The translations under genes and the position numbers were made by a program. Source: Candidatus Saccharibacteria bacterium RIFCSPHIGHO2_12_FULL_47_16b (GTDB lineage Bacteria; Patescibacteriota; Saccharimonadia; Saccharimonadales; UBA10212). Taken from it: a stretch of DNA of 64,000 nt. Position 1 is the first letter of the stretch. Every line of letters starts with the position of its first letter. The notes beneath the pieces were generated by a model, which saw only the letters and a list, made by a program, of their open reading frames with translations, made no database searches and was not told the DNA's origin. Positions 1-30,883 of this stretch are shown here, in pieces. The DNA is taken from assembly GCA_001790525.1 (NCBI GenBank), contig MGCU01000023.1:5659-69658 (forward strand), read 5' to 3'.

Positions 1-121
1 TGGTCGCCTCCTTAATTGGCTCCTTACTGCGGTTATGGGCAATGACTTGATGGTTGTCCTCGGCCAGCTTTTGGGTAATTTGGGTGCCCATTCGACCAAG
101 ACCAGCTATAGCTATCTTCAC
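1..121 (-). CDS. gnd: 6-phosphogluconate dehydrogenase-like NAD-binding protein, N-terminal fragment (continues past window edge)
   Basis: rc of 1-121 translates VKIAIAGLGRMGTQITQKLAEDNHQVIAHNRSKEP (Rossmann GxGxxG, 6PGDH-type N-terminus). GTG start at 119-121 with GGAGG 5 nt upstream. Adjacent to pgl. Confidence 0.5.
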   Translation of the reverse strand, partial: MKIAIAGLGRMGTQITQKLAEDNHQVIAHNRSKEPIKEAT

Positions 122-284
122 GACACGCCTCCTAGCGTCGGCTTAAATTCTAAGTTCGAATTTCTAATTTCTAAACAATTATCAAATTCTAAGCACCAAA
201 TTCTAAATATTTGGGAATTAGAACTTAGATATTCGGATTTGTTTAGGATTTCGATATTAGATATTAGAAATTGGAGTAATGTAA

Positions 285-956
285 TCACGACGGCTCCCCT
301 CTGTAATCATTATATATGGTTAGTTTTTTGGCTGTCTTTAAGACTTGGGCTGGTTGTTTGTTTGGAGGGATGTCTTCATCGACAATTTGATCAATCAGCG
401 ACCATTTCTCTCGGCCAACCATATAGACGACTGCTTCATCCAAGTTAGTAAGCGAGCCAAGGGTCATAGTTATGCGTTGGAAATCCGCGGCCTGATAGCC
501 AACTACCAACTCTTGTGAATCAATGCCGATACTGCCGGGCATAACACCCAGCGTGTGTCCATCGGCGCCAATGCCAATGCAGGCAATTTTAAAATCGCAG
601 CTGGCAAATTCTTGCTTTAAGTACGCCGCAAAATCGGCAGTGGTTGAAGCGAAATCCTTATTTTCTAAGACCGGACGAAACTTGGCGCCGCTTAAGCTGA
701 AACCGGCATTGACTAATTTCTGCCAGTTAGAATCTGGATGTCCAATCGGCCCAAAACGCTCATCGGTTAAGCTGACAGTTAAATTCTGGACGTTTTGGCT
801 TTGGAGTCTTTTGGCTGTCTCAATTTGAATCGGCGTCAAAGAACCACCAGATAGTAGCCATAAAACCTTTGCACCGGCCGTCAATCTTTTAGCAATGGCC
901 TCATTTAAATAATCGACGACTACTTCACTACTGCCAATCTTTTGGAAACTGATCAC
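285..956 (-). CDS. pgl: 6-phosphogluconolactonase (NagB/Pgl family)
   Basis: Motifs LLSGGSLTP and GIGADGHTLG typical of 6PGL/glucosamine-6-P isomerase fold. Next to a gnd-like gene. Confidence 0.6.
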   Translation of the reverse strand: MISFQKIGSSEVVVDYLNEAIAKRLTAGAKVLWLLSGGSLTPIQIETAKRLQSQNVQNLTVSLTDERFGPIGHPDSNWQKLVNAGFSLSGAKFRPVLENKDFASTTADFAAYLKQEFASCDFKIACIGIGADGHTLGVMPGSIGIDSQELVVGYQAADFQRITMTLGSLTNLDEAVVYMVGREKWSLIDQIVDEDIPPNKQPAQVLKTAKKLTIYNDYRGEPS

Positions 957-1299
957 TTGCCTCGATTATACAGAAGTCACGTATTCCATGTGCTTGCATT
1001 TGAGTGCAGCGCAAATCTTTTTAAGACTTATCATATTTGGGTGCGGTACAAGGAAGAAGCGAGCAACGAACTGAGATGTATACAGATATACTTTGAAGGA
1101 GTAGCGTAGCTTCTGACGATGTAATGCGTCAAAGATGTAAGTCGTCTGGAAATGAAAAGGCGCCCTTGTTTAAGGGGCGTCTTTTCTACAGTTTGGCTAC
1201 CGAAGTAGTTACGCTGTAGCCACCTCACGATGGCACATTACAATTTACGCCCAGTCGAAATAGCAGTCAATAACTTCTGCTGTGTATAAATGTTGTAGT

Positions 1300-1899
1300 T
1301 TATGCCTGGTTGTCAGCAAGAAACTTTTTAACCTTATCAAGTACCTTATGTGTAATAGCTTTTTCGGCCAGCAAAACATCAAGGGCTTCTCCCAAGGTAA
1401 AGACGGCATACAAGTTGTAGCCTCTTTCAGCCAGATTTTTTTTGGCTCCCTGCTCACGATCTAATAGAACTACAACGTCATTAACTTTCAATCCTTCTGA
1501 TTCAAACGGCTGAATAACCTCAAACTTGGAAGCGCCAGTCGTAACCATGTCATCTATCAAAACCACTGTTTCCCCAGGCTTATACTCTCCTTCGATTGGT
1601 TTCTTGATGCCGTGATCTTTGATCTCTTTGCGGGTGTAAATCCATGGTCGGTTGCTTACGAGCGATATGGCAGCCGTAATCGGCAGCGCGGTATATGGCA
1701 CAGCTCCCATCCTATCGAATTTCAATTTTGCCAAAATATCGCTATAGACCTTGGCTACTTTGCGCATAGTTGCCGGATAAGAAACTAGAACTCGTAAATC
1801 AATATAAATTGGTGAAACCAACCCGCTCTTAAGCGTGAACTGGCCAAACTTTATGACGCCGATGGAATTAAGCTCAATGATTAAATCTTTATGCTCCAT
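1300..1899 (-). CDS. pyrE: orotate phosphoribosyltransferase
   Basis: PRTase motif [13 protein letters not shown]. Overlaps pyrF by 11 nt. Confidence 0.85.
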
Positions 1900-2629
1900 T
1901 GATTACTCCCTTGATGTCATCAATAATTTTAGCGAAAGCGGTTGCCGGGTCGCTAGCTTGAGTGATCTCTCGGCCGATGACCAGTAAATCAGCACCGGCG
2001 GCAATTGTTTCGGCTGGCGTAGCGACCCTGGCCTGATCAACCGTTTGAACACGGGTCGAACGTGCGCCAGGGATCATGGTCAAGAGGTTCTTGGTCTTTT
2101 CGTTTTGTTTGATCATACTAACTTCCTGTGGTGAAGCGACAATGCCGGCTAAGCCGGCCGTCGCCGCTGACTGCGCCAGTTCCAATACTTTTTCTTTAGC
2201 CGTGGAGCCATAAATACGCTGACACTCTTCATCACTTAGAGATGTTAAAACAGTGACTCCAAATATCTTAACTTGCCCGGCTTTGGCTTGGGCTCCTAGC
2301 ATGGCTTGATGACCGGCTGTGGTGTGAATTGTAATAGCATATGGTGAGTGGGTCAGTTTAACTAAACTGGCCACGCTGGCTGAAGTTGTATTTGGAATAT
2401 CATCCAATTTGGCATCTGCCACCCAGTCTAATTGATGCTTTTTGGCTAGCTTGGCGCACCATTGCCAGCTCTTGGCCGTGGCTAGCTGTAAACCGAACTT
2501 GATATAGATTGCTCCTGCTGATTTGGCCAACTCGGCAAGTTTTTCAGCCTCTGCTGCATTGGCAGTATCAATCGCCAATATAATTCTATTGGCCACCTCG
2601 TGCTTACTTTGAAAAGTCGGCATTGTCAC
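1889..2629 (-). CDS. pyrF: orotidine 5'-phosphate decarboxylase
   Basis: ILAIDT...K..D.PNT family signature. Pyrimidine gene context. Confidence 0.8.
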
Positions 2630-2647
2630 TTAGTATAGTAAGAAGTT

Positions 2648-3745
2648 ATGGGAAAAACCACTACCGCGCTCAAAGCCTTCTACGATCCGACTAAGACCTA
2701 TGACGATAATTTCGATGATGGCCCAACCTTAGTTTCTTCCGACGATAAACCCTTTCAAAATCTTGGTGAACCAAAATTTACTTTCCTTGGCAAGAAGCTA
2801 TATTCACCTTTTGGTATTCCAGCTGGACCAATTCTGAACAGCAAATATGTCAAGTATGCTTTTGAGCGCGGCTTTGATGTGGTTACATACAAAACTCAAC
2901 GAAGTGTAGAATTTAACGTTAACCAATTTCCCAACGTCCTTTATGTTGATATAGATGGCGATCTAACTTTAGATAAAACCTCAAAACCGTTACTTGGCTC
3001 GACCAAAACGAATAAACCATCTAACAAATTTTCTATTACCAATTCATTCGGTAATCCCTCCCGTGGTCCGGCCTTTTGGGTAGCCGACACTAAAAAAGCC
3101 CACAGTTATCAAGGCAAGGGCCAACTGCTAGTGTCAAGCGCCGTCGGCACTATTAATGAAGGCTTCACTAACGAAGATTATTATGAAGATTTTGCGCTGA
3201 CAGCTGGACTAGCTAAATCATCTGGCGTTGAAGCCATCGAAATTAACCTGTCCTGCCCCAACGTTGCCAATGAAGGAATTTTGTGCTACACGCAGAAGGC
3301 TGTGGTTGACATTGTCCGCCGGGTCAAAGACCGAATTGGCAATAAGCCATTAATTGTCAAAGTTGGCTATTACACGCCCGAGCAGCAGTCATTATTAGAG
3401 AATATTATGAAGGAAATAGCTCCTTACATTGCTGCCATCTCGGCAATCAATACTATCCCCGCTCCGGTTGTAGATAAAAATGGTAAACAAGCTCTACCCG
3501 GTCCAAACCGCTTAGTCAGCGGCATTTGCGGGGTGGCTATTAAATGGGCTGGACTGGATATGGTCAAACGTTTGAATGAACTTCGCCGTAAAACAAAAGC
3601 AGAGTTCGAGATTGTCGGCGTTGGTGGTGTAATGACTCCGGACGATTTTTGGCAGTACCGTAGAGCTGGTGCGGATAACGTTCAGTCGGCCACTGGCGCC
3701 ATGTGGAATCCAAAGCTGGCAGCCAAGATAAAAGCTACACTTTAG
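2648..3745 (+). CDS. pyrD: dihydroorotate dehydrogenase
   Basis: EINLSCPN active-site signature. Divergent from pyrF. Confidence 0.8.
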   Translation: MGKTTTALKAFYDPTKTYDDNFDDGPTLVSSDDKPFQNLGEPKFTFLGKKLYSPFGIPAGPILNSKYVKYAFERGFDVVTYKTQRSVEFNVNQFPNVLYVDIDGDLTLDKTSKPLLGSTKTNKPSNKFSITNSFGNPSRGPAFWVADTKKAHSYQGKGQLLVSSAVGTINEGFTNEDYYEDFALTAGLAKSSGVEAIEINLSCPNVANEGILCYTQKAVVDIVRRVKDRIGNKPLIVKVGYYTPEQQSLLENIMKEIAPYIAAISAINTIPAPVVDKNGKQALPGPNRLVSGICGVAIKWAGLDMVKRLNELRRKTKAEFEIVGVGGVMTPDDFWQYRRAGADNVQSATGAMWNPKLAAKIKATL

Positions 3746-4890: not shown

Positions 4891-5271
4891 ATGAAGTTAC
4901 CGACAAAGATTGGCGGGATGACTGCTCGGTTTGATGGTCGGGGGCGCAGCCTTGGCTATCCAACGGCCAATCTTAGGAAAACAAATGTTTCGGTCGACGA
5001 TGGCGTTTATTTTGGTTTTGCCACGCTTGGCAAATTTAAAAGTGAACCAGCTCTAATTTTTATTGGTGCGCCGGAAACTTTTGGTAAAAACGAACGTCGA
5101 GTCGAAACCTATCTTTTGGATATACCGGATGAGGATCATTATGACCAAAAATTAATGTTAAGTTTGGAAAAGTTCTGGCGGCCGTCTAAAAAATTTACAT
5201 CAATCAACGAATTAAAACACGCTATGCGCGACGATGAACTGGCCGCGCGCAAGTGGTTTGTCAATCACTGA
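4891..5271 (+). CDS. riboflavin kinase domain protein (RibF C-terminal-like)
   Basis: GRGRSLGYPTANL matches the riboflavin-kinase GxGRGxxLGFPTAN motif. Standalone 126-aa ORF. Confidence 0.55.
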   Translation: MKLPTKIGGMTARFDGRGRSLGYPTANLRKTNVSVDDGVYFGFATLGKFKSEPALIFIGAPETFGKNERRVETYLLDIPDEDHYDQKLMLSLEKFWRPSKKFTSINELKHAMRDDELAARKWFVNH

Positions 5272-5430
5272 TGGCTGGGGAGGAGGGATTTTCGACCCAC
5301 AAATATTTTTCCTGACGGAAAAATTTCGCGGGCCCACCTCGCCGCCGTTGCGGCTGCGGTTTCCGGACTGCCACTGGCAGTTCTCACCCCGAATGCCGGG
5401 ACACCAGCACTAAAAATTATTCTATTTATT

Positions 5431-5504
5431 TGGCTTCGGGACTTGGACTCGAACCAAGATTGCTGGGACCAAAACCCAGTGTCCTACCATTAGACGATCC
5501 CGAA
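5431..5504 (-). tRNA. tRNA-Gln (anticodon UUG)
   Basis: Hand-folded cloverleaf: acceptor TTCGGGA/TCCCGAA, anticodon loop TTTTGGT, T-arm CTTGG-TTCGAGT-CCAAG, discriminator G plus encoded CCA. Confidence 0.75.
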
Positions 5505-6661: not shown

Positions 6662-6831
6662 GACATGAACAGGTTCATGCATTTACAATTTACCATTTAC
6701 CATTTATCATTAATTTCCCATTTGTCATTTACCAAACAAACTGCAACTGATATCTGTAAATTGCTAAATGATAAATCATTGAGAATTGAAAAATGTGAAT
6801 TGATAATTGCGCCGACACAAGGAGGCGCGGT
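6662..6831 (+). repeat. Dispersed intergenic module (family 2), forward orientation, upstream of the glycosyltransferase gene
   Basis: TTTACCATTTACCATTTATCATTAATTTCCCATTTGTCATTTACCAAACAAACTGCA...TGTGAATTGATAATTG...GGAGGCG is near-identical to the rc of the rpsH-rplF spacer (43013-43241). Confidence 0.7.
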
Positions 6832-8079
6832 GTGAAGATCGGGTTGGTCTGTCCCTATAATATGTTCGATAGAACTGGCGGTGTCCAACAGGTTGTCCAG
6901 CACCTCCACGATGGTCTGACCAAAAAAGGTCACATCGTCAAAATTATTACCCCAAAGCCACCGGGCTTTAAAAATGAGGCGCCAGATGACTACATTATTT
7001 TAGGCTCAACCACCAATTTTACAGCCGGTTTTGGTGCCGCCGGCAACTGGGGCTTGCCTACCGATAGTAAGGAAATGGCCCAAATTTTAAAAAAAGAAAA
7101 ATTCGACGTTATTAACTTCCATGAACCCTGGGCACCGTTACTGGCCTGGCAAATGATCAGACAAACTAAAGCGGCCTTTGTGGGCACCTTTCATGCCAAC
7201 TTATTCGATAGGCCGTCAACCTCTTCCTGGGTTAATGTGTTTACACCTTACGCTCGGAATTTGGGCAAGCGTTTGCACGTTATAACCGCTGTCTCACCGG
7301 CGCCAGCTGCCCTAATGATTCAAAAAGCTCAAACTAGTTTTGAGAAAAGAATGGTTGCCGATATTAAGTACATTCCTAACGGTGTTGACCTTAATATTTA
7401 TAAACCATTCAAAAAACGCCTGCCGCTTAACGGCCCAGACACTAAAACTGTTCTTTATGTTGGCCGGCTAGACAGGCGAAAAAATGTTGAAGCTTTAATA
7501 AGAGCCTTTGCTTTAGTTGAGGCTAAAATGCCCAAGGCCTACTTAAATATCGCTGGTGAAGGTTCCAGGCGCGGTAGTCTGGATCAACTGGCTAAAACTT
7601 TAGGCATTAAAAACATTCATTTTAGCGGTTATGTTAACGAAGACGAAAAGCGACGTTTAATGGGTAATGCTGACGTTTTTTGTAGCCCCGCGATCGTTGG
7701 TGAAAGTTTTGGCATAGTCTTGATTGAAGCCATGGCAATGGGTTGTCCGGTAGTGGCTGGTAGAAATTCCGGCTACATTCATGTTTTGACCAATACCGGT
7801 AGAGTCGGCCTAGTTGATCCTAAAGCGACCGAGGACTTTGCCGAACGTTTGATGGTTATAATAAGCGACGGCAAACTAAGTAGTACGCTTCGGGCCTGGG
7901 GCTTAGCCGAAGTTAAAAAGTTTGATTACACCAAAATAATTGATCAATATGAAAAGACCTATATGGAGGCTTATATCAAGTGGCGGATAGAGCAGCATCT
8001 TAACGGTGTTAATAGCAAGAATGCAAAGAAATTCTGGAAAACTAAGCGTCGCTTTCCTTTACGACGATTCTTTAGATAG
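6832..8079 (+). CDS. GT4-family glycosyltransferase
   Basis: GT-B/GT4 architecture. EX7E-like region GESFGIVLIEAMAMGCPVV. N-terminal GGVQQVV. Confidence 0.75.
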   Translation: MKIGLVCPYNMFDRTGGVQQVVQHLHDGLTKKGHIVKIITPKPPGFKNEAPDDYIILGSTTNFTAGFGAAGNWGLPTDSKEMAQILKKEKFDVINFHEPWAPLLAWQMIRQTKAAFVGTFHANLFDRPSTSSWVNVFTPYARNLGKRLHVITAVSPAPAALMIQKAQTSFEKRMVADIKYIPNGVDLNIYKPFKKRLPLNGPDTKTVLYVGRLDRRKNVEALIRAFALVEAKMPKAYLNIAGEGSRRGSLDQLAKTLGIKNIHFSGYVNEDEKRRLMGNADVFCSPAIVGESFGIVLIEAMAMGCPVVAGRNSGYIHVLTNTGRVGLVDPKATEDFAERLMVIISDGKLSSTLRAWGLAEVKKFDYTKIIDQYEKTYMEAYIKWRIEQHLNGVNSKNAKKFWKTKRRFPLRRFFR

Positions 8080-19735: not shown

Positions 19736-19922
19736 TTTTGTCCTTTCTTAACAGCCATGACAATTAAAAAATCTTTGGCTATTTAAACCAAAGACTGTCT
19801 TAGGCGAAGCTTAATTTACCTCGGTAGCGGATTAAGTTCGGGGTTATCCGGACAGCTACTGTCTTTGGTCTTGCCCGCTATCTTAACATACTCTAGTCTA
19901 GCTAAGCAACTCTTTATTTTTT
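19736..19922 (-). promoter_or_regulatory. rplJ leader with a long-range helix (candidate L10 autoregulatory leader)
   Basis: 187-nt 5' UTR. ACCAAAGACAG...CAGTCTTTGG complementary segments about 90 nt apart, as in L10(L12)4-binding leaders. Confidence 0.35.
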
Positions 19923-26868: not shown

Positions 26869-27930
26869 TTATTTTATCAAACCTAGCAAACTGATGGTTT
26901 TTTCAATAGTTGCTATGGCGTCTAAAATGCTCTCGGCTCGGATGTTTTTGGCACCTGCGGCCTGTTTATGCCCTCCTCCACCTAATTTAGCGGCAATCTG
27001 TGAAACATCAACTCCGCCACTAACTGACCTAAAAGAAGCCGAATATGAAATTGGCTCGCTTAAAAGCTCTGGATAAACTACAAATCCCCAAAAATTGTTA
27101 TCTAGATTTCGAAGATATTGGTTAGTAAAAATATCACAGCCGGCTTTGAGGTCCATATCCGGTTTGACATCCGATTGCCAGTCTTTGGCAAATTGATCGT
27201 CAATAAAGCTGTAGGTATAGCCTTTACCGTTATCGGTTGCATTTTCAAGTAGGTGGGCTAAGACAACCAGCTCATCTTTAGTAAATCGGTTTAATCGAAA
27301 TTCGAGTTGTTCAATGCTGGCTCCGGCCTCAATTAACTGGCTAACGATTCGGAAGGTGTTTTTATAATCCGGATTATCGTATTTAAAGCGGCTGGTGTCT
27401 CTTAAAATCCCAAGCAGGGCCGTCTTGGCATAACCTTCAGGCTTTTGGAAGTCTAACTGCTCGAAGCAAAGTTCATAAATTTGTTGAGCCGTAGACGATT
27501 TGCCTTCGTTGATATAAATGTCGCCCTGGAAAGAACCGTCATCAGGATGATGATCGATAACAGCTACTTTTGACTTCAAATGCTCGTGAATTAACTTAGA
27601 AAGTTCGTCGGTTTTATTTCTAGAGACTCGGGCTAGTGAATTTCCATCGACGATAACAACTAAATCTGGCTTAAAATCGGAAGCGGCTTCAAAGACCGGT
27701 GCAAATTTAATTTCGCTATAACCACCCAAAAAACTTAGATCTTGAGAGGTATTTTCTTCAAGCACCATTTGGATTTGCTTATCCGGAAAATTTGCCTGCA
27801 ACGTCCTACCCATCAACAAGACCGAACAAACCGCATCCGGATCCGGCGATATATGTGAAGTTACCAAAATTCGGTTAGCTGCCTTAACTAAACTTTGAAA
27901 TTGTTGAGTCAAAATGGCCCCTGCCACCAA
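26869..27930 (-). CDS. DHH/DHHA1 phosphoesterase (second NrnA-like paralog)
   Basis: DHH (VIDHHPDD) and GGGGH motifs. Confidence 0.7.
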   Translation of the reverse strand: MVAGAILTQQFQSLVKAANRILVTSHISPDPDAVCSVLLMGRTLQANFPDKQIQMVLEENTSQDLSFLGGYSEIKFAPVFEAASDFKPDLVVIVDGNSLARVSRNKTDELSKLIHEHLKSKVAVIDHHPDDGSFQGDIYINEGKSSTAQQIYELCFEQLDFQKPEGYAKTALLGILRDTSRFKYDNPDYKNTFRIVSQLIEAGASIEQLEFRLNRFTKDELVVLAHLLENATDNGKGYTYSFIDDQFAKDWQSDVKPDMDLKAGCDIFTNQYLRNLDNNFWGFVVYPELLSEPISYSASFRSVSGGVDVSQIAAKLGGGGHKQAAGAKNIRAESILDAIATIEKTISLLGLIK

Positions 27931-28130
27931 TCACTAAACACGTAATCAGTAACCTTAATACTCTTGTACTTCACTATTAGGATGCTAAAAGTTACGAATA
28001 AAGAACCAGGTATTATCATAATAACTCCAATTAGTTTTCCGCTCGCAAATCCCATGTAAATAACTCCGAAACCAATAAGAGCAAGGATTATCGCAAAACA
28101 ATACAGTCCATAAAGTTTTAACTTTTTCAT
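27909..28130 (-). CDS. small membrane protein (2 TM), cassette gene 1
   Basis: 73 aa with two hydrophobic helices. Preceded by conserved element A. Confidence 0.4.
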   Translation of the reverse strand: MKKLKLYGLYCFAIILALIGFGVIYMGFASGKLIGVIMIIPGSLFVTFSILIVKYKSIKVTDYVFSDWWQGPF

Positions 28131-28169
28131 ACAGATTCTATGGTGCAGCGTAGTTGCCGAAGCTAGGAC
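28115..28169 (-). repeat. Cassette-associated element A (GTTTTAAC...TGGTGCAGCGTAGTTGCCGAAGCTAGGAC)
   Basis: Shares the core TGGTGCAGCGTA plus GTT(C/T)TAAC / GCTAG(G/A)AC termini with elements B and C. Confidence 0.55.
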
Positions 28170-28228
28170 GCTGTTCCTTGTTTAACTTTGGTAATTCCTC
28201 TGTCCCCGCTATTAAGGTGACGTACTTG

Positions 28229-28501
28229 TTATGAACCTGTTCCTTCTGCGGAATAACGCAGTTTGTTTTCTATGTTCCACTTGTTTACCCACGCACCCGA
28301 TTCGAGCATTGCGCTTGTTGCCAAAAGACCCAACACTACGGCTGTGTGATATCGCCCATCAACTGTAATTTCGGCAACACCGACACCCACAAAGGCTGCA
28401 ACCGCCAAACCATGAAATGTATCTTTGGCAAAGCGACACGCCTCGACATAGCTTGAATCACTATTCGTAAGTAAATCTAAACCTCTTCTAATATAGCCCA
28501 T
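28229..28501 (-). CDS. small membrane protein, cassette gene 2
   Basis: 90 aa. Hydrophobic core GLAVAAFVGVGVAEI...VVLGLLATSAML. Preceded by element B. Confidence 0.4.
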   Translation of the reverse strand: MGYIRRGLDLLTNSDSSYVEACRFAKDTFHGLAVAAFVGVGVAEITVDGRYHTAVVLGLLATSAMLESGAWVNKWNIENKLRYSAEGTGS

Positions 28502-28546
28502 AGCTCAATTATAGCAGTCGTAGATTTTCCAAAAAAGTATGGAGTA

Positions 28547-28605
28547 GGTTCTAACGTTCACAATGCTCTAATCTGTGGTGCAGCGTAATAAACGATGCTA
28601 GAACC
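28547..28605 (-). repeat. Cassette-associated element B, 59 nt with 9-bp terminal inverted repeats (GGTTCTAAC ... GCTAGAACC)
   Basis: GGTTCTAACgttcacaatGCTCTAATCTGTGGTGCAGCGTAataaacgatGCTAGAACC. The termini are 8/9 reverse-complementary. Confidence 0.6.
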
Positions 28606-28627
28606 ATTTTAACCCAGCATCAGTCGT

Positions 28628-29260
28628 TTAGTCCGTGTAATAATCTTCGCCATAGACAATATCCGGCCTAATTTTACCTAACGCTACTGTATCGGGCAGA
28701 AGTTTCTCTAATTCATTCAGTGGTTCTTCTGATGGAAGTTCACCAACTAACGGATGAACATATCCTAGCGTAATATCTGGAGTATAGACACCATGAGGAA
28801 CTTCCACGCCAAGTTCTCTGGCAAGATTCTCTAAATACACTGCCCGTTCTGCATCAAGGATACTTTCTTCATCGTCTAGTATAACTCGAATTTTGTACTG
28901 ATTCTGATACCTCTGCCCATGAGGAACCTTAGTGTATTGAACAGCTTCAAGTGGAAATTCTAACCTCTCTTTTGCATTAACGGCCGGTGGGTTCATAACG
29001 CGAGATAGGGCGACTGATGGGGGGAGAAAAAGAAAATCTACATCGTCTAGCTCTGCCAAAATATCTCTCGTTTCATAGTGACTCACAAGCCCAAGAGTAG
29101 GGGCTATCGCTCTCTTACCGATTAATTTGTATTCAGGGTAGTTACTGTTAAATTTTAGGCGTTCGGTCTCTCCTAATACTCCTGCGATCTGCCTTCTCTG
29201 AACACGTAAACTATATATCAATTCACTTTGGTCCGGACTTGAGTGTTGCTCGCTCGTCAT
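28628..29260 (-). CDS. hypothetical protein, cassette gene 3
   Basis: 210-aa ORF. No recognisable motif. Preceded by element C. Confidence 0.45.
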   Translation of the reverse strand: MTSEQHSSPDQSELIYSLRVQRRQIAGVLGETERLKFNSNYPEYKLIGKRAIAPTLGLVSHYETRDILAELDDVDFLFLPPSVALSRVMNPPAVNAKERLEFPLEAVQYTKVPHGQRYQNQYKIRVILDDEESILDAERAVYLENLARELGVEVPHGVYTPDITLGYVHPLVGELPSEEPLNELEKLLPDTVALGKIRPDIVYGEDYYTD

Positions 29261-29273
29261 AGTTATTCTAATA

Positions 29274-29360
29274 GTTCTAACATACCGATTGCTCTAATCT
29301 GTGGTGCAGCGTAGTTGCCGACCTGTCCTCCGAGACCTTGGTGAAGGGGGAAGCTAGGAC
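29274..29360 (-). repeat. Cassette-associated element C (GTTCTAAC...GCTCTAATCTGTGGTGCAGCGTAGTTGCCGAC...GAAGCTAGGAC) with a 29-nt internal insertion
   Basis: Same core and termini as A and B. Contains the TAG stop of the 58-aa ORF. Confidence 0.55.
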
Positions 29361-29530
29361 AATCTTAAATCTGGGTCAGTTGGGCTAATTAACTCGTTAT
29401 GTTCATGGACTCTGATTTCGTAAGCCTTTCTGCCCTCAAGTGCAGTAGAGTACCAACTTGCAGCTTCGGGTTCTCCTGCCTCTATCCAATAGTCACGATT
29501 CGCAGCGGCATTACGCTTCGCGGTTTCCAT
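29354..29530 (-). CDS. possible small ORF (58 aa), cassette gene 4
   Basis: ATG at 29528-30 (METAKRNAAANRDYWIEAGEPEAASWY...) to TAG at 29354-56. The frame is open a further ~50 codons upstream with no ATG. Confidence 0.25.
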   Translation of the reverse strand: METAKRNAAANRDYWIEAGEPEAASWYSTALEGRKAYEIRVHEHNELISPTDPDLRLS

Positions 29531-29713
29531 GACATCTTGAGGAAACGTACCTGAAGCAACGATATTTACGATGTTTGCACTCCCTTGCCGAGCGATGGCA
29601 ATTGGGCTAAGAGGGTCTTCAGCTGGTGGTCTTACTGATTTAAATGCTTCTCTCGTATTTACTCCTAATGAATTACTATTTTATACTTTTACAGTAGAAA
29701 TGCAAATAAAAAA

Positions 29714-29750
29714 GTTCTAACGTCCCGAATGCTCTTATCTTATGATGGTC
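29714..29750 (-). repeat. Partial cassette element D (GTTCTAACGTCCCGAATGCTCTTATCTTATGATGG)
   Basis: Left arm and GCTCT(A/T)ATCT core conserved. The right arm is replaced by the CCCTCGACAAGCTCGGGGTT motif. Confidence 0.4.
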
Positions 29751-29829
29751 CCTCGACAAGCTCGGGGTTATTCGACTCGGCGTAAATGGTTTACTGCGAG
29801 CGAGGCAGGAGTATTTCTGCCGAGTTGAG

Positions 29830-29878
29830 TGGTGCTGGTCTTCGACGTGGCTCAGGCTAAAGGGGAGGGATTCTGACC
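29830..29878 (-). pseudogene. tRNA-Tyr 3'-end fragment (T-arm/acceptor copy interrupted by a 23-nt insert); att-like direct repeat
   Basis: TGGTGCTGG-[23 nt]-GGGGAGGGATTCTGACC compared with the tRNA-Tyr 3' end TGGTGCTGGGGGAGGGATTCGAACC at 30036-30060. 20 of 26 positions are identical. Confidence 0.5.
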
Positions 29879-29984
29879 TTGCCAGCAAATCAAATTTAGA
29901 TTTGCTAAGGCAACCCCGATTTGTCACAGCCCCAAGTCGGGGCTCTGGGCGGGGTATGCCACCGGCATACCCGTTCTCATCCCT

Positions 29985-30035
29985 CCACAAAAACAAGCGA
30001 CTTATTAATGAGCACAAGGCTCATTGCCAAGTCGC
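29985..30035 (-). terminator. Rho-independent terminator immediately after tRNA-Tyr
   Basis: The minus strand reads GCGACUUGGCAAUGAGCcuuguGCUCAUUAAUAAGUCGC followed by UUGUUUUUGU. Confidence 0.55.
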
Positions 30036-30122
30036 TGGTGCTGGGGGAGGGATTCGAACCCCCGAAGGCGTAAAGCCGTTTGATTTACAGTCAAATGCGT
30101 TTGGCCACTTCGCTACCCCAGC
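30036..30122 (-). tRNA. tRNA-Tyr (anticodon GUA), type II long variable arm
   Basis: Acceptor GCTGGGG/CCCCAGC, anticodon loop CTGTAAA, long variable arm, T-loop TTCGAAT, discriminator A, CCA encoded. Confidence 0.75.
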
Positions 30123-30124
30123 GC

Positions 30125-30201
30125 TGGAGCCGACGAGCGGATTCGAACCGCTGACATGCTGTTTACAAAACAGCTGCTCTGGCCAGCTGAGCTACGTCGG
30201 C
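30125..30201 (-). tRNA. tRNA-Thr (anticodon UGU)
   Basis: Acceptor GCCGACG/CGTCGGC, anticodon stem GCTGT/ACAGC with loop TTTGTAA, T-loop TTCGAAT, CCA encoded. 2 nt from tRNA-Tyr. Confidence 0.75.
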
Positions 30202-30232
30202 ATTAACCACAAAGAGTTTAACAAAACAGGGG

Positions 30233-30883
30233 TCAGATTACAACTCGGCGGGGGCGGACTAGTCTTTTGGGTTGGCTGGCCGCCGCTAGGCGGTTTAGTT
30301 TTTTACGTACCCTGGCGGTTTCGTCCTTCATCCCTCGCTCTTCATAGGCGTTTAACAGCAGGTTGTAACTTTCGGCGGTCGGTTCTATTCTAGCCGCAAC
30401 TTCTAGTTCATGCATCATATGTTTATCATTACCTAGCTTTTCCTGAACTTTGGCATAAGCAATATGCCGAGCCGCCAAATTATCTTCGAGTCTTAAGGCT
30501 TGCTCAAAAGCGGTAGCGGCCTTAGGGTAATTTTCCGTCTCGTAGTAAATCAGTCCTAGATTGTGCAAACTTGAGGCGCTTGGCTCGATAGAGCTAGCTA
30601 TCTCAAAACAATCAATGGCGTCGCGGTATTCGCGTTGCTTGGCGTAAAGGATGCCGAGCCGGTTGTAGGCGGCAGCATTTTTTTCATCTATTTTTAAGAT
30701 TGTCAGCAAGGCTTTTTCAGCCCGCAATAGGCGATTTTCACGCATACCATAATGGGCAATTTCCCATAATTTGCTTAATCGATTACCGATGAAGCGTGGC
30801 ACTTCCGTTAAGGTGGTTATCGATTTGGCGCCGTGATAATAAACAAGATAGGCAAAAATCAAAAATAAAAGGACTGAATACAT
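30233..30883 (-). CDS. TPR-repeat protein with N-terminal membrane anchor
   Basis: N-terminal hydrophobic helix followed by several 34-aa TPR-like repeats (AAYNRLGILYAKQREYRDAIDCFEIA...). Confidence 0.6.
   Translation of the reverse strand: MYSVLLFLIFAYLVYYHGAKSITTLTEVPRFIGNRLSKLWEIAHYGMRENRLLRAEKALLTILKIDEKNAAAYNRLGILYAKQREYRDAIDCFEIASSIEPSASSLHNLGLIYYETENYPKAATAFEQALRLEDNLAARHIAYAKVQEKLGNDKHMMHELEVAARIEPTAESYNLLLNAYEERGMKDETARVRKKLNRLAAASQPKRLVRPRRVVI

Follow-up and report, generated by a model that had tools for sequence, protein, structure and literature searches.

A 64,000-nt stretch of contig MGCU01000023.1 from Candidatus Saccharibacteria bacterium RIFCSPHIGHO2_12_FULL_47_16b (hereafter the window) carries a series of repeated short elements between small genes, next to a pair of tRNA genes. 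Our analysis favors the view that these elements are the joints of tandem small, mostly one-gene cassettes, inserted serially directly 3' of the CCA of tRNA-Tyr; we assign this reading a probability of about 0.58. On the minus strand, positions 27909-30201 hold tRNA-Thr(UGU), tRNA-Tyr(GUA), approximately 290 nt of G+C-rich non-coding sequence, open reading frames (ORFs) of 58, 210, 90, and 73 aa, and a DHH-family phosphoesterase gene. Comparison with relatives revealed a hot spot, an empty site, differing cassette content, a one-cassette polymorphism, a junction exactly after CCA, an interchange between tRNA-Tyr ends and the element, and a parallel array at tRNA-Asp. In architecture, the system is a set of site-anchored cassette arrays, and this integron-like layout is undescribed for Saccharibacteria in the searched literature.

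The element comprises two modules. On the gene strand, M1 reads GTYCTAGC, a variable tip, and TACGCTGCACCA, ending like tRNA-Tyr (…GCACCA), and M2 reads CAGATTAGAGCA-N9-GTTAGAAC. Four copies were found where an earlier note on this DNA had placed them: A at 28141-28169, B at 28548-28604 (57-59 nt), C at 29274-29360 (with a 30-nt insertion), and D at 29714-29745. Copies B and C consist of M1 followed by M2, copy A of M1 only, and copy D of M2 only. Across the 64 kb, exactly three instances of the core TGGTGCAGCGTA were counted versus 0.14 expected, and three of GTTCTAAC-N9-GCTCTAATCT versus 0.01 expected. The repeats are real and not chance matches. The array region was identical across 7 independent metagenome contigs; it is therefore no assembly artefact, and for the same reason these contigs are uninformative on strain variation.

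The M1 pattern was scanned once across a genome collection and once across metagenomes, with 0-2 mismatches accepted for a bona fide copy. The orthologous locus was walked in 10 further genomes, and approximately 14 related loci were gene-called in total; L0xx labels denote the related loci or contigs compared with the window. tRNA genes were called with ARAGORN and Rfam, protein families with Pfam, and defence models with PADLOC, a database of anti-phage defence-system proteins. The two scans yielded 26 distinct M1 copies on >15 Saccharibacteria contigs; the organism names attached to DHH homologues place the host in Candidatus Saccharibacteria/Saccharimonadales. Their consensus is GTCCTAGCTTCGGCAACTACGCTGCACCA, and the 3' half (…GCTGCA-CA) was invariant in all 26 copies. 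M1 reads GTCCTAGC-TTCG-GCAACTACGCTGCACCA, an imperfect hairpin whose last 6-8 nt copy the tRNA-Tyr 3' end; the shared sequence is GCACCA, or CTGCACCA where tRNA-Tyr ends in …CCCTGCACCA. Copy A and its counterpart in L011 are identical at 37/38 positions, while the flanking genes are merely 58-75% identical at the DNA level. Where cargo genes are reverse-oriented, neither the orientation of M1 nor its 5' flank TAGCAGC changes, indicating that it is not merely the 3' untranslated region of a co-oriented gene.

On the other side of the joint, many units begin with AGCATAAGCGTT; M2 represents a variant form that is preceded by 8 extra nt. A dyad, ACGC-N7 facing N7-GCGT, is centered on the joint where M1 meets AGCATAAGCGTT, and it was also present in the tRNA-Asp version described below, where AACGCCCCGCCA meets AGCATAAGCGTT. 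The symmetry spans only 4-5 bp, however, and many joints have a different right arm or none. In some units, M2 probably carries a promoter, judging from TTAAGT 16-17 nt upstream of TATGAT or TATCAT. An M1-like motif with other spacing, GTTCTAGC-N-TACGCTGCACCA, was seen in two other Saccharibacteria at other loci (L017 2327-2384 and L014 6267-6299), where approximately 0.2 chance matches are expected in Patescibacteria; the copy in L017 lies between hpf and an ORF whose N-terminus is secA-like by eye. Chance could account for this motif, or it may be distantly related to the element. Matches in L008-L010, L012, L013, L015, L016, L018-L021, L026, L027, L031, L033, L036, L038, L041, and L046 (Thaumarchaeota and others) were set aside as chance or coding matches, L019, from the scan of viral contigs, being a chance match in coding sequence. 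The pattern match in L040 was discarded for its eukaryote-like ORFs.

Every bona fide M1 with enough flanking sequence lay between the tRNA-Thr(UGU)-tRNA-Tyr pair and the DHH gene or tRNA-Thr(GGU) or, where the tRNA pair was inverted, between the pair and a TPR gene. The sole placed exception was two divergent M1-like copies in the tRNA-Asp array. When 228 kb from 11 loci were searched with the M1 core at ≤1 mismatch, no copy was found outside the tRNA-Tyr gap. This single-locus distribution rules out a general terminator, a repetitive extragenic palindromic (REP)-like element, and a miniature inverted-repeat transposable element (MITE). In L011, L049/L050, and L052, and probably in L037 and L045, the tRNA-Thr/tRNA-Tyr pair was inverted together with its cassettes with respect to the TPR and DHH genes on either side. 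In L029, an ORF for a PD-(D/E)XK endonuclease (146-535; PF11645, E 2e-21) stood between tRNA-Thr and tRNA-Tyr, which are elsewhere 1-40 nt apart.

The content of the hot spot differed among relatives. The site was empty in L047/L048, the closest relative on a long contig (DHH 67% identical), where …CAGCACCA is followed by TATCT and then the ATG of the DHH gene. L049 and L058 had a single non-coding unit alone, and further relatives had arrays of 2-4 one-gene units. Cargo in relatives included a RelB-like/YafQ toxin-antitoxin pair, Mu Gam, a GH5 cellulase, an AIR-synthase-related protein, DUF4202, a P-loop kinase, and membrane proteins; L052 carried an orotidine monophosphate decarboxylase gene with unknown ORFs, and L057 carried RRM and Ddl genes. 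In L054-L056, a purN - FGAM synthase (purS/L) - purQ - purM operon filled the hot spot upstream of the DHH gene; in L054/L055 it follows a pseudo tRNA-Tyr end and in L056 it follows M1. Purine synthesis genes may be acquired via the tRNA-Tyr site. A PurM-like unit was present in L029, and a reverse-oriented 475-aa ORF in L044 appeared PurF-like by eye. In another Saccharibacteria contig (L051 1-1940), defence-type genes (GmrSD, ThsB-TIR, and SLATT/DUF4231) were located just upstream of infA.

Two comparisons between loci showed variation in single units. L042/L032 carry exactly one extra 420-bp unit that is absent from L025/L028, with flanks 99.6% identical; the unit consists of AGCATAAGCG…, an ORF of approximately 100 aa for a membrane protein, and M1, and two M1 copies bound it. 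L043 and L022 share one unit, 90% identical from M1 on, with different upstream units. The earlier note had proposed, as one of several possibilities, that a cassette array lies near the tRNA genes, and the empty site, the other cassettes, the one-cassette polymorphism, and the breakpoints at the element in relatives bear this out. It had also counted an absence of cassette variation between strains against such an array; L042/L032 versus L025/L028 demonstrate that variation exists.

The extent of the exchanged unit was resolved by comparing joints. In 8 joint pairs, the right flanks were homologous in register from the first base after …CACCA (30-43/45 identical), and in each pair the left partner was a real or pseudo tRNA-Tyr end in one member and M1 in the other. 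These swapped left partners indicate that an exchange unit begins with the base that follows a CCA and extends to the CCA after it. In L011, M2 comes directly behind the real tRNA-Tyr 3' end. Pseudo tRNA-Tyr ends were found in the window (29878-29830), L022, L049, L054, and L058, and they track the host's own tRNA-Tyr sequence.

The features of the array in the window, from the tRNA side to the DHH side, are as follows.

30125-30201, minus strand: tRNA-Thr(UGU), first of the anchoring tRNA pair (ARAGORN; Rfam tRNA, 69 bits).
30036-30122, minus strand: tRNA-Tyr(GUA), 3' end …CCCCCAGCACCA, CCA encoded (ARAGORN, Rfam).
29988-30035, minus strand: intrinsic-terminator-like hairpin and U-run, GCGACUUGG…AAGUCGC UUGUUUUUG, directly after tRNA-Tyr, start of the non-coding cassette (sequence, fold).
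29830-29987, minus strand: main part of the non-coding cassette, an RNA-like domain of several hairpins with GGAGGGAU/AUCCCUCC as its closing pair (fold).
29746-29829, minus strand: second short non-coding segment, ending in a degenerate pseudo tRNA end …TCGAATAACCCCGAGCTTGTCGAGGGACCA (sequence).
29714-29745, minus strand: copy D, M2 only, TCATAAGATAAGAGCATTCGGGACGTTAGAAC, behind the pseudo tRNA end (sequence).
29678-29706, minus strand: promoter-like TTTGCA-17-TAAAAT downstream of D (consensus scan, pattern match only).
29354-29530, minus strand: 58-aa ORF, cargo of cassette 1 (ORF call).
29302-29360, minus strand: M1 of copy C, GTCCTAGCTTC, a 30-nt insertion at the hairpin tip, and GGCAACTACGCTGCACCA, end of cassette 1 (sequence).
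29274-29301, minus strand: M2 of copy C, CAGATTAGAGCAATCGGTATGTTAGAAC, start of cassette 2 (sequence).
28628-29260, minus strand: 210-aa ORF, cargo of cassette 2 (ORF call).
28576-28604, minus strand: M1 variant of copy B, GTTCTAGCATCGTTTATTACGCTGCACCA, end of cassette 2 (sequence).
28548-28575, minus strand: M2 of copy B, CAGATTAGAGCATTGTGAACGTTAGAAC, start of cassette 3 (sequence).
28229-28501, minus strand: 90-aa hydrophobic ORF, cargo of cassette 3 (ORF call).
28141-28178, minus strand: copy A, consensus M1 GTCCTAGCTTCGGCAACTACGCTGCACCA (28141-28169) with its 5' stem flank (sequence).
27909-28130, minus strand: 73-aa membrane ORF between the last M1 and the DHH gene (ORF call).
26869-27912, minus strand: DHH/DHHA1 phosphoesterase gene, conserved distal border of the hot spot (Pfam; synteny in >12 loci).

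The order in the window is thus tRNA-Tyr, two non-coding units with pseudo tRNA ends, D, the 58-aa ORF, C, the 210-aa ORF, B, the 90-aa ORF, A, and the 73-aa ORF. The four minus-strand ORFs (73, 90, 210, and 58 aa) were as the earlier note had described them, and so were the adjoining tRNA-Tyr/tRNA-Thr pair and the duplicated tRNA-Tyr 3' fragment (29878-29830). The limits it gave for the array were too narrow, since the true start, the tRNA-Tyr 3' end (30036), lies outside them. This 3' end is the primary insertion point, analogous to attB or attI; in L047, the DHH start codon stands 5 nt past the CCA. CCA is encoded in all 5 tRNA genes of the window.

The first unit behind tRNA-Tyr is non-coding. 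Hairpins analogous to its terminator-like hairpin occur 3' of tRNA-Tyr in L022, L049, and L054. The domain at 29830-29987 (approximately 150 nt) folds with a minimum free energy of -84 kcal/mol (z -4.1 versus shuffled sequence), and its L022 homologue has a z of -5.0. Homologues were located at L049 9553-9690, L052 approximately 6786-6930, and L022 12400-12596, with compensatory changes in those of L049 and L052, including one hairpin window versus L049. In L052 the domain follows M1 and not a tRNA, and so behaves as a non-coding cassette. The unit is terminated by the duplicated tRNA-Tyr 3' end, GGTCAGAATCCCTCCCC, 23 nt, and CCAGCACCA. A search of 27800-30300 against Rfam, at the gathering threshold and with the E-value relaxed to 10, returned tRNAs only. 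In the second non-coding segment, the pseudo end …TCGAATAACCCCGAGCTTGTCGAGGGACCA resembles the pseudo-Tyr end of L022, CCCGAGCGATATCGAGGGGCAGCACCA.

The 22 nt AGAGCATTCGGGACGTTAGAAC of copy D recur directly after M1 in L043, and AGGAG at 29662-29666 follows the promoter-like site near D. The stop codon TAG of the 58-aa ORF sits within GTCCTAGC of the copy C M1. The frame of this ORF is open for approximately 46 codons further upstream (29531-29680, minus strand) with no ATG, GTG, or TTG, and the promoter-like site and AGGAG are at the start of that stretch, which could be a decayed gene or one with an unusual start codon. Cassette 2 starts with CAGATTAGAGCAATCGG (29301) and ends with …TACGCTGCACCA (28576). 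TAGAAT lies 4 nt before the ATG of both the 210-aa and the 73-aa ORFs, and TATAAT lies 6 nt before the ATG of the 90-aa ORF (28501). These -10-like boxes just before the ATGs suggest leaderless mRNAs. The stop codon TGA of the 73-aa ORF overlaps the called TTG start of the DHH gene (TTGA, 27909-27912), suggesting translational coupling. Pfam and PADLOC returned no match for the 58-, 210-, 90-, and 73-aa ORFs. Elsewhere in the window, a ribosomal protein L10 leader is present upstream of rplJ (19756-19886, minus strand; RF00557, 46.5 bits; gathering 44).

A second tRNA gene with such an array was recognized through the cargo of cassette 2. The 210-aa ORF is near-orphan, with 9 remote homologues among 1.8 billion representatives, and its closest homologue (49% identity) lies in the L059/L060 array behind tRNA-Asp(GUC). 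In L059 (OBEQ011412666), the array at 1-3060 comprises a terminator followed by a pseudo tRNA-Asp end and a series of units that end with GTTCCGACTTGGACTATAACGCCCCGCCA. This sequence is identical to M1 at 16/29 positions in register, its last 9 nt imitate the tRNA-Asp end, and AGCATAAGCGTT comes next. Besides the homologue of the 210-aa ORF, the cargo includes a Fic protein and an ACT-domain protein. The first 11 nt of copy B with their flank (AATGGTTCTAG) match the element behind the homologous gene in L059. The two divergent M1-like (Tyr-type) copies in this array are at L059 2440-2468 and 2955-2983, the first directly before an Asp-type element. The tRNA-Asp array suggests that the design is general: a cassette-specific left part combined with a tRNA-specific 3' end. 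A paralogue of the structured non-coding element was also found at 5262-5430 of the window (minus strand), just after tRNA-Gln (5431-5504), with the arrangement GGGGUGAGAAC-hairpin … GGGUCGAAAAUCCCUCCUCCCCAGCCA (z -3.45) and no match in Rfam. Its last 5 nt, AGCCA, are those of the tRNA-Gln end, so tRNA-Gln may be a third insertion point. Cargo such as RelB/YafQ, Mu Gam, Fic, and GH5 cellulase is typical of mobile cassettes.

We propose the following mechanism. A cassette would start at the base just past one …CCA and continue to the following …CCA, with M1 as its 3' end. Its 5' end would often be a right arm (M2 in the window, AGCATAAGCGTT elsewhere), which in several copies would also supply the promoter of the cargo, M2 being the putative promoter. 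M1 joined to a right arm would represent an attP-like joint (P-O-P'), as in copies B and C; a tRNA end joined to M2 would be attL-like (B-O-P'), as in copy D; and M1 joined to native sequence would be attR-like (P-O-B'), as in copy A. Circular cassettes would be inserted one by one, either at the tRNA end or at a joint already in place, and a recombinase encoded elsewhere would act in trans on M1 and the tRNA-like end for insertion and excision. The predicted excision joints are M1 joined to its own cassette start and tRNA-Tyr-CCA joined directly to TAGAATCTGTATG.

Several observations weigh against serial insertion by a recombinase. No integrase, transposase, or reverse transcriptase was present among the ORFs of the window or in the approximately 14 related loci. 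This agrees with the earlier note, which had seen no integrase: the scanned window ORFs include no Phage_integrase or other recombinase family, and no recombinase was found at the orthologous locus of the 10 further genomes. Scans of the IMG/VR viral contigs for the M1 pattern and its 3' half, for the B/C core, and for the 3' end of tRNA-Tyr found no M1 or tRNA-Tyr-end attP, and no circular or excised form was seen. Conservation on the right side of the joint is not universal, the first bases after CCA vary, and M1 is identical to the tRNA-Tyr end over just 6-8 nt, which is unusual for tyrosine recombinases. The joint is the mature tRNA 3' terminus, an RNA landmark, at three different tRNAs. 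The 420-bp polymorphism could be a deletion by homologous recombination between the M1 repeats and not an insertion.

The tRNA landmark leads to the main alternative, which we regard as unlikely, that M1 acts as RNA. A tRNA-like minihelix, with a 7-bp acceptor-like stem, approximately 12 stacked layers, and a UUCG tip followed by ACCA, would punctuate a tRNA-mRNA co-transcript and be cut or trimmed by tRNA-processing enzymes, or would stabilise 3' ends; in the extreme form, CCA-ended processed units would be copied back into DNA beside a CCA end (retro-mobilisation). GCAGCGUCCUAGCUUCGGCAACUACGCUGCACCA folds at -14 kcal/mol (z -3.7), and G·U-tolerant pairing favors the gene strand. The pairing is also supported by a G-C to A-U double change in L024b and L056 and by the 30-nt insertion of copy C, which lies exactly at the hairpin tip. 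Most copies have a stem plus ACCA. Covariation is nonetheless statistically weak, with 81% of cells paired versus 80% in shuffles and one pair with a double change, and the outer stem is absent in approximately 6/26 copies. The M1 3' strand, loop, and mismatch positions are invariant, which points to sequence-specific and not shape-specific recognition. That unit boundaries coincide with the mature 3' ends of tRNA-Tyr, tRNA-Asp, and tRNA-Gln, and that all 5 window tRNA genes encode CCA, fits the RNA explanation. It is less compatible with M1 flanking reverse-oriented genes and a 5.5-kb operon too, with cassettes that appear to hold their own promoters, and with the lack of a visible reverse transcriptase in the window or related loci.

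Exchange with no dedicated machinery appears slightly less probable again. M1 would then be a conserved functional element of another kind, and natural transformation with homologous recombination via the tRNA pair, M1, and the DHH gene as arms would shuffle the content. Saccharibacteria are reported to be naturally competent, the length of M1 (29-38 nt) would permit RecA-mediated exchange now and then, the 420-bp polymorphism between two M1 repeats fits a deletion of this kind, and the lack of a recombinase in the window and related loci would be accounted for. This explanation fails on the 8 joints at which tRNA-Tyr ends and M1 are swapped, since only 6-8 nt are shared there and the break falls exactly after CCA. 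Neither the mimicry of tRNA-Asp by the cassette ends at that tRNA nor the conservation of M1 is given a reason.

The elements might also be merely repeated promoter or operator regions of the downstream genes, as the earlier note had considered; we judge this improbable. One part of that suggestion stood: M2 alone looks promoter-bearing, with TTAAGT-like hexamers 16-17 nt upstream of TATGAT/TATCAT in L011, L043b, and L022b, and -10-like boxes 4-7 nt before several ATGs suggest leaderless mRNAs; a promoter-like site adjoins D. The other part, one element placed before each gene, did not hold, as M1 ends the upstream cassette. M1, the best-conserved half, closes the upstream unit at its 3' end, and it also follows the last gene and flanks reverse-oriented genes. 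Element and -10 box are separated by differing distances (in the window, 3, 30, and 34 nt), and a scan found 2 promoter-like sites versus 4.1 expected, with no excess. Regulation also leaves the locus specificity and the tRNA-end mimicry unexplained.

There is very little room for a cassette array of the classical integron type, or for a cluster of attC sites without an integrase (CALIN), with attC sites recombined by IntI. The co-directional array of small ORFs and the toxin-antitoxin cassette in one relative are in its favor, and so is copy B, which has 59 nt, complementary ends, a good fold (z -3.6), and a GTTAGAA that fits GTTRRRY at 6/7. The earlier note had derived both its attC reading and a ~60-nt element with terminal inverted repeats from this copy; the ends of B, GGTTCTAAC and GCTAGAACC, are indeed 8/9 complementary, but the size and the repeat are peculiar to B and do not extend to the family. 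Copy B agrees with the attC core sites at 6/7 and 5/7 positions, whereas the consensus ends GTCCTAGC and GTYAGAAC are unlike RYYYAAC/GTTRRRY, and many cassettes are without the second arm (AGCATAAGC-type starts). The full M1+M2 consensus is no better folded than shuffled sequence (z +0.5 to +1.0), and only B forms the hairpin of the full element. Joints fall mid-element after …CACCA, with variable bases following, and not between G and TT. The sequence is conserved across genera, whereas attC is conserved in structure, and no intI was found in the 64-kb window. An equally slim chance is left to a MITE, a small non-autonomous transposon that landed repeatedly between genes: the 8/9 terminal inverted repeats of copy B had suggested it, but the family consensus has none (GTCCTAGC versus GTYAGAAC, 5-6/8), many copies are without M2, no target-site duplications or flanking direct repeats besides the element itself were found, orientation is fixed, and bona fide copies stay in one locus per genome with no dispersal.

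Other candidate identities were rejected. M1 is not a decayed tRNA 3' half or a glyT relic, as no T-arm pairing could be drawn. A dif/Xer-like 11-6-11 architecture shares no more than GGTGC with the element, and the 30-nt insertion in copy C also speaks against it. IS200/IS605-type ends (a hairpin, with insertion 3' of a short target) were dismissed for the lack of a matching left-end hairpin and the presence at one locus only, and DNA uptake sequences and REP elements do not fit in copy number and distribution.

Full-text literature searches found no description of such a system, although serial cassette insertion has partial parallels. Integrons and CALINs are alike in that a fixed chromosomal platform gathers small, mostly one-gene cassettes without their own recombinase, with a recombination-site-like 3' element of hairpin potential, strain-variable content, and toxin-antitoxin cassettes. 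The arrays described here differ in having no IntI and no attI/Pc promoter, in cassettes that seem to carry their own promoters, in a sequence-conserved site without attC consensus or fold, and in a primary site that is a tRNA gene 3' end, joined after CCA. The second parallel is with tRNA-targeting elements and accretion arrays, namely cis-mobilizable elements (CIMEs) and the tycheposon islands of Prochlorococcus, which are tRNA-targeting accretion arrays (bioRxiv 10.1101/2020.12.28.424599). There too, insertion occurs at the tRNA 3' part, the inserted DNA is bordered by tRNA 3'-end repeats, older insertions are displaced outward by newer ones, flexible genes gather in a streamlined genome, and recombinase-less units can stand between att sites. 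The units here are 0.1-1.2 kb (one of 5.5 kb), none with an integrase or replication module, and they end in a dedicated 29-nt site sharing 6-8 nt with the tRNA, not in a partial tRNA; true pseudo-tRNA ends also occur, and joints are exactly at CCA. On this comparison, the array appears closer to the recombinase-less units of tRNA-anchored accretion arrays than to integrons.

Xer-dependent modules (integrative mobile elements exploiting Xer, IMEX, and the pdif modules of Acinetobacter plasmids) are likewise small and recombinase-less, with short dyad-symmetric sites and a host recombinase acting in trans. The site here is not dif-like (11-6-11 by eye is unconvincing), and the modules all point the same way at a tRNA gene, unlike pdif sites, which alternate in orientation. 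In tRNA punctuation and plant mitochondrial t-elements, a tRNA-acceptor-like hairpin with ACCA similarly stands between coding units in a locus starting with tRNA genes. M1 differs in being sequence-conserved, mobile with its cassettes, and present beside reverse-oriented genes.

A broader proposal is that Saccharibacteria own an integron-analogous gene-capture system, in which recombinase-less cassettes are placed at tRNA CCA ends (Tyr, Asp, and possibly Gln) and an enzyme acting in trans recognises a cassette-borne mimic of the acceptor end as DNA, possibly folded single-stranded DNA, or via RNA ending in CCA. We put this forward tentatively, at somewhat less than even odds. There is a substantial chance that the enzyme and its recognition mode are new.

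Patescibacteria, the candidate phyla radiation (CPR), have genomes of approximately 1 Mb with few recognised mobile elements and many lineage-specific genes. The locus described here represents a concrete, repeatable route of gene gain in CPR, in which a fixed hot spot at a tRNA 3' end stacks small cassettes. The tag GTCCTAGCTTCGGCAACTACGCTGCACCA is directly searchable, so that the flexible gene pool can be extracted from metagenomes, and it is a defined substrate for finding the responsible enzyme. If these bacteria do own such a gene-capture system, it would constitute a new class of site and possibly a new mechanism of recombination or retro-integration. If it is true that the enzyme recognises a mimic of the tRNA acceptor end, this would be a new form of site recognition and a potential genome-engineering tool for newly tractable organisms.

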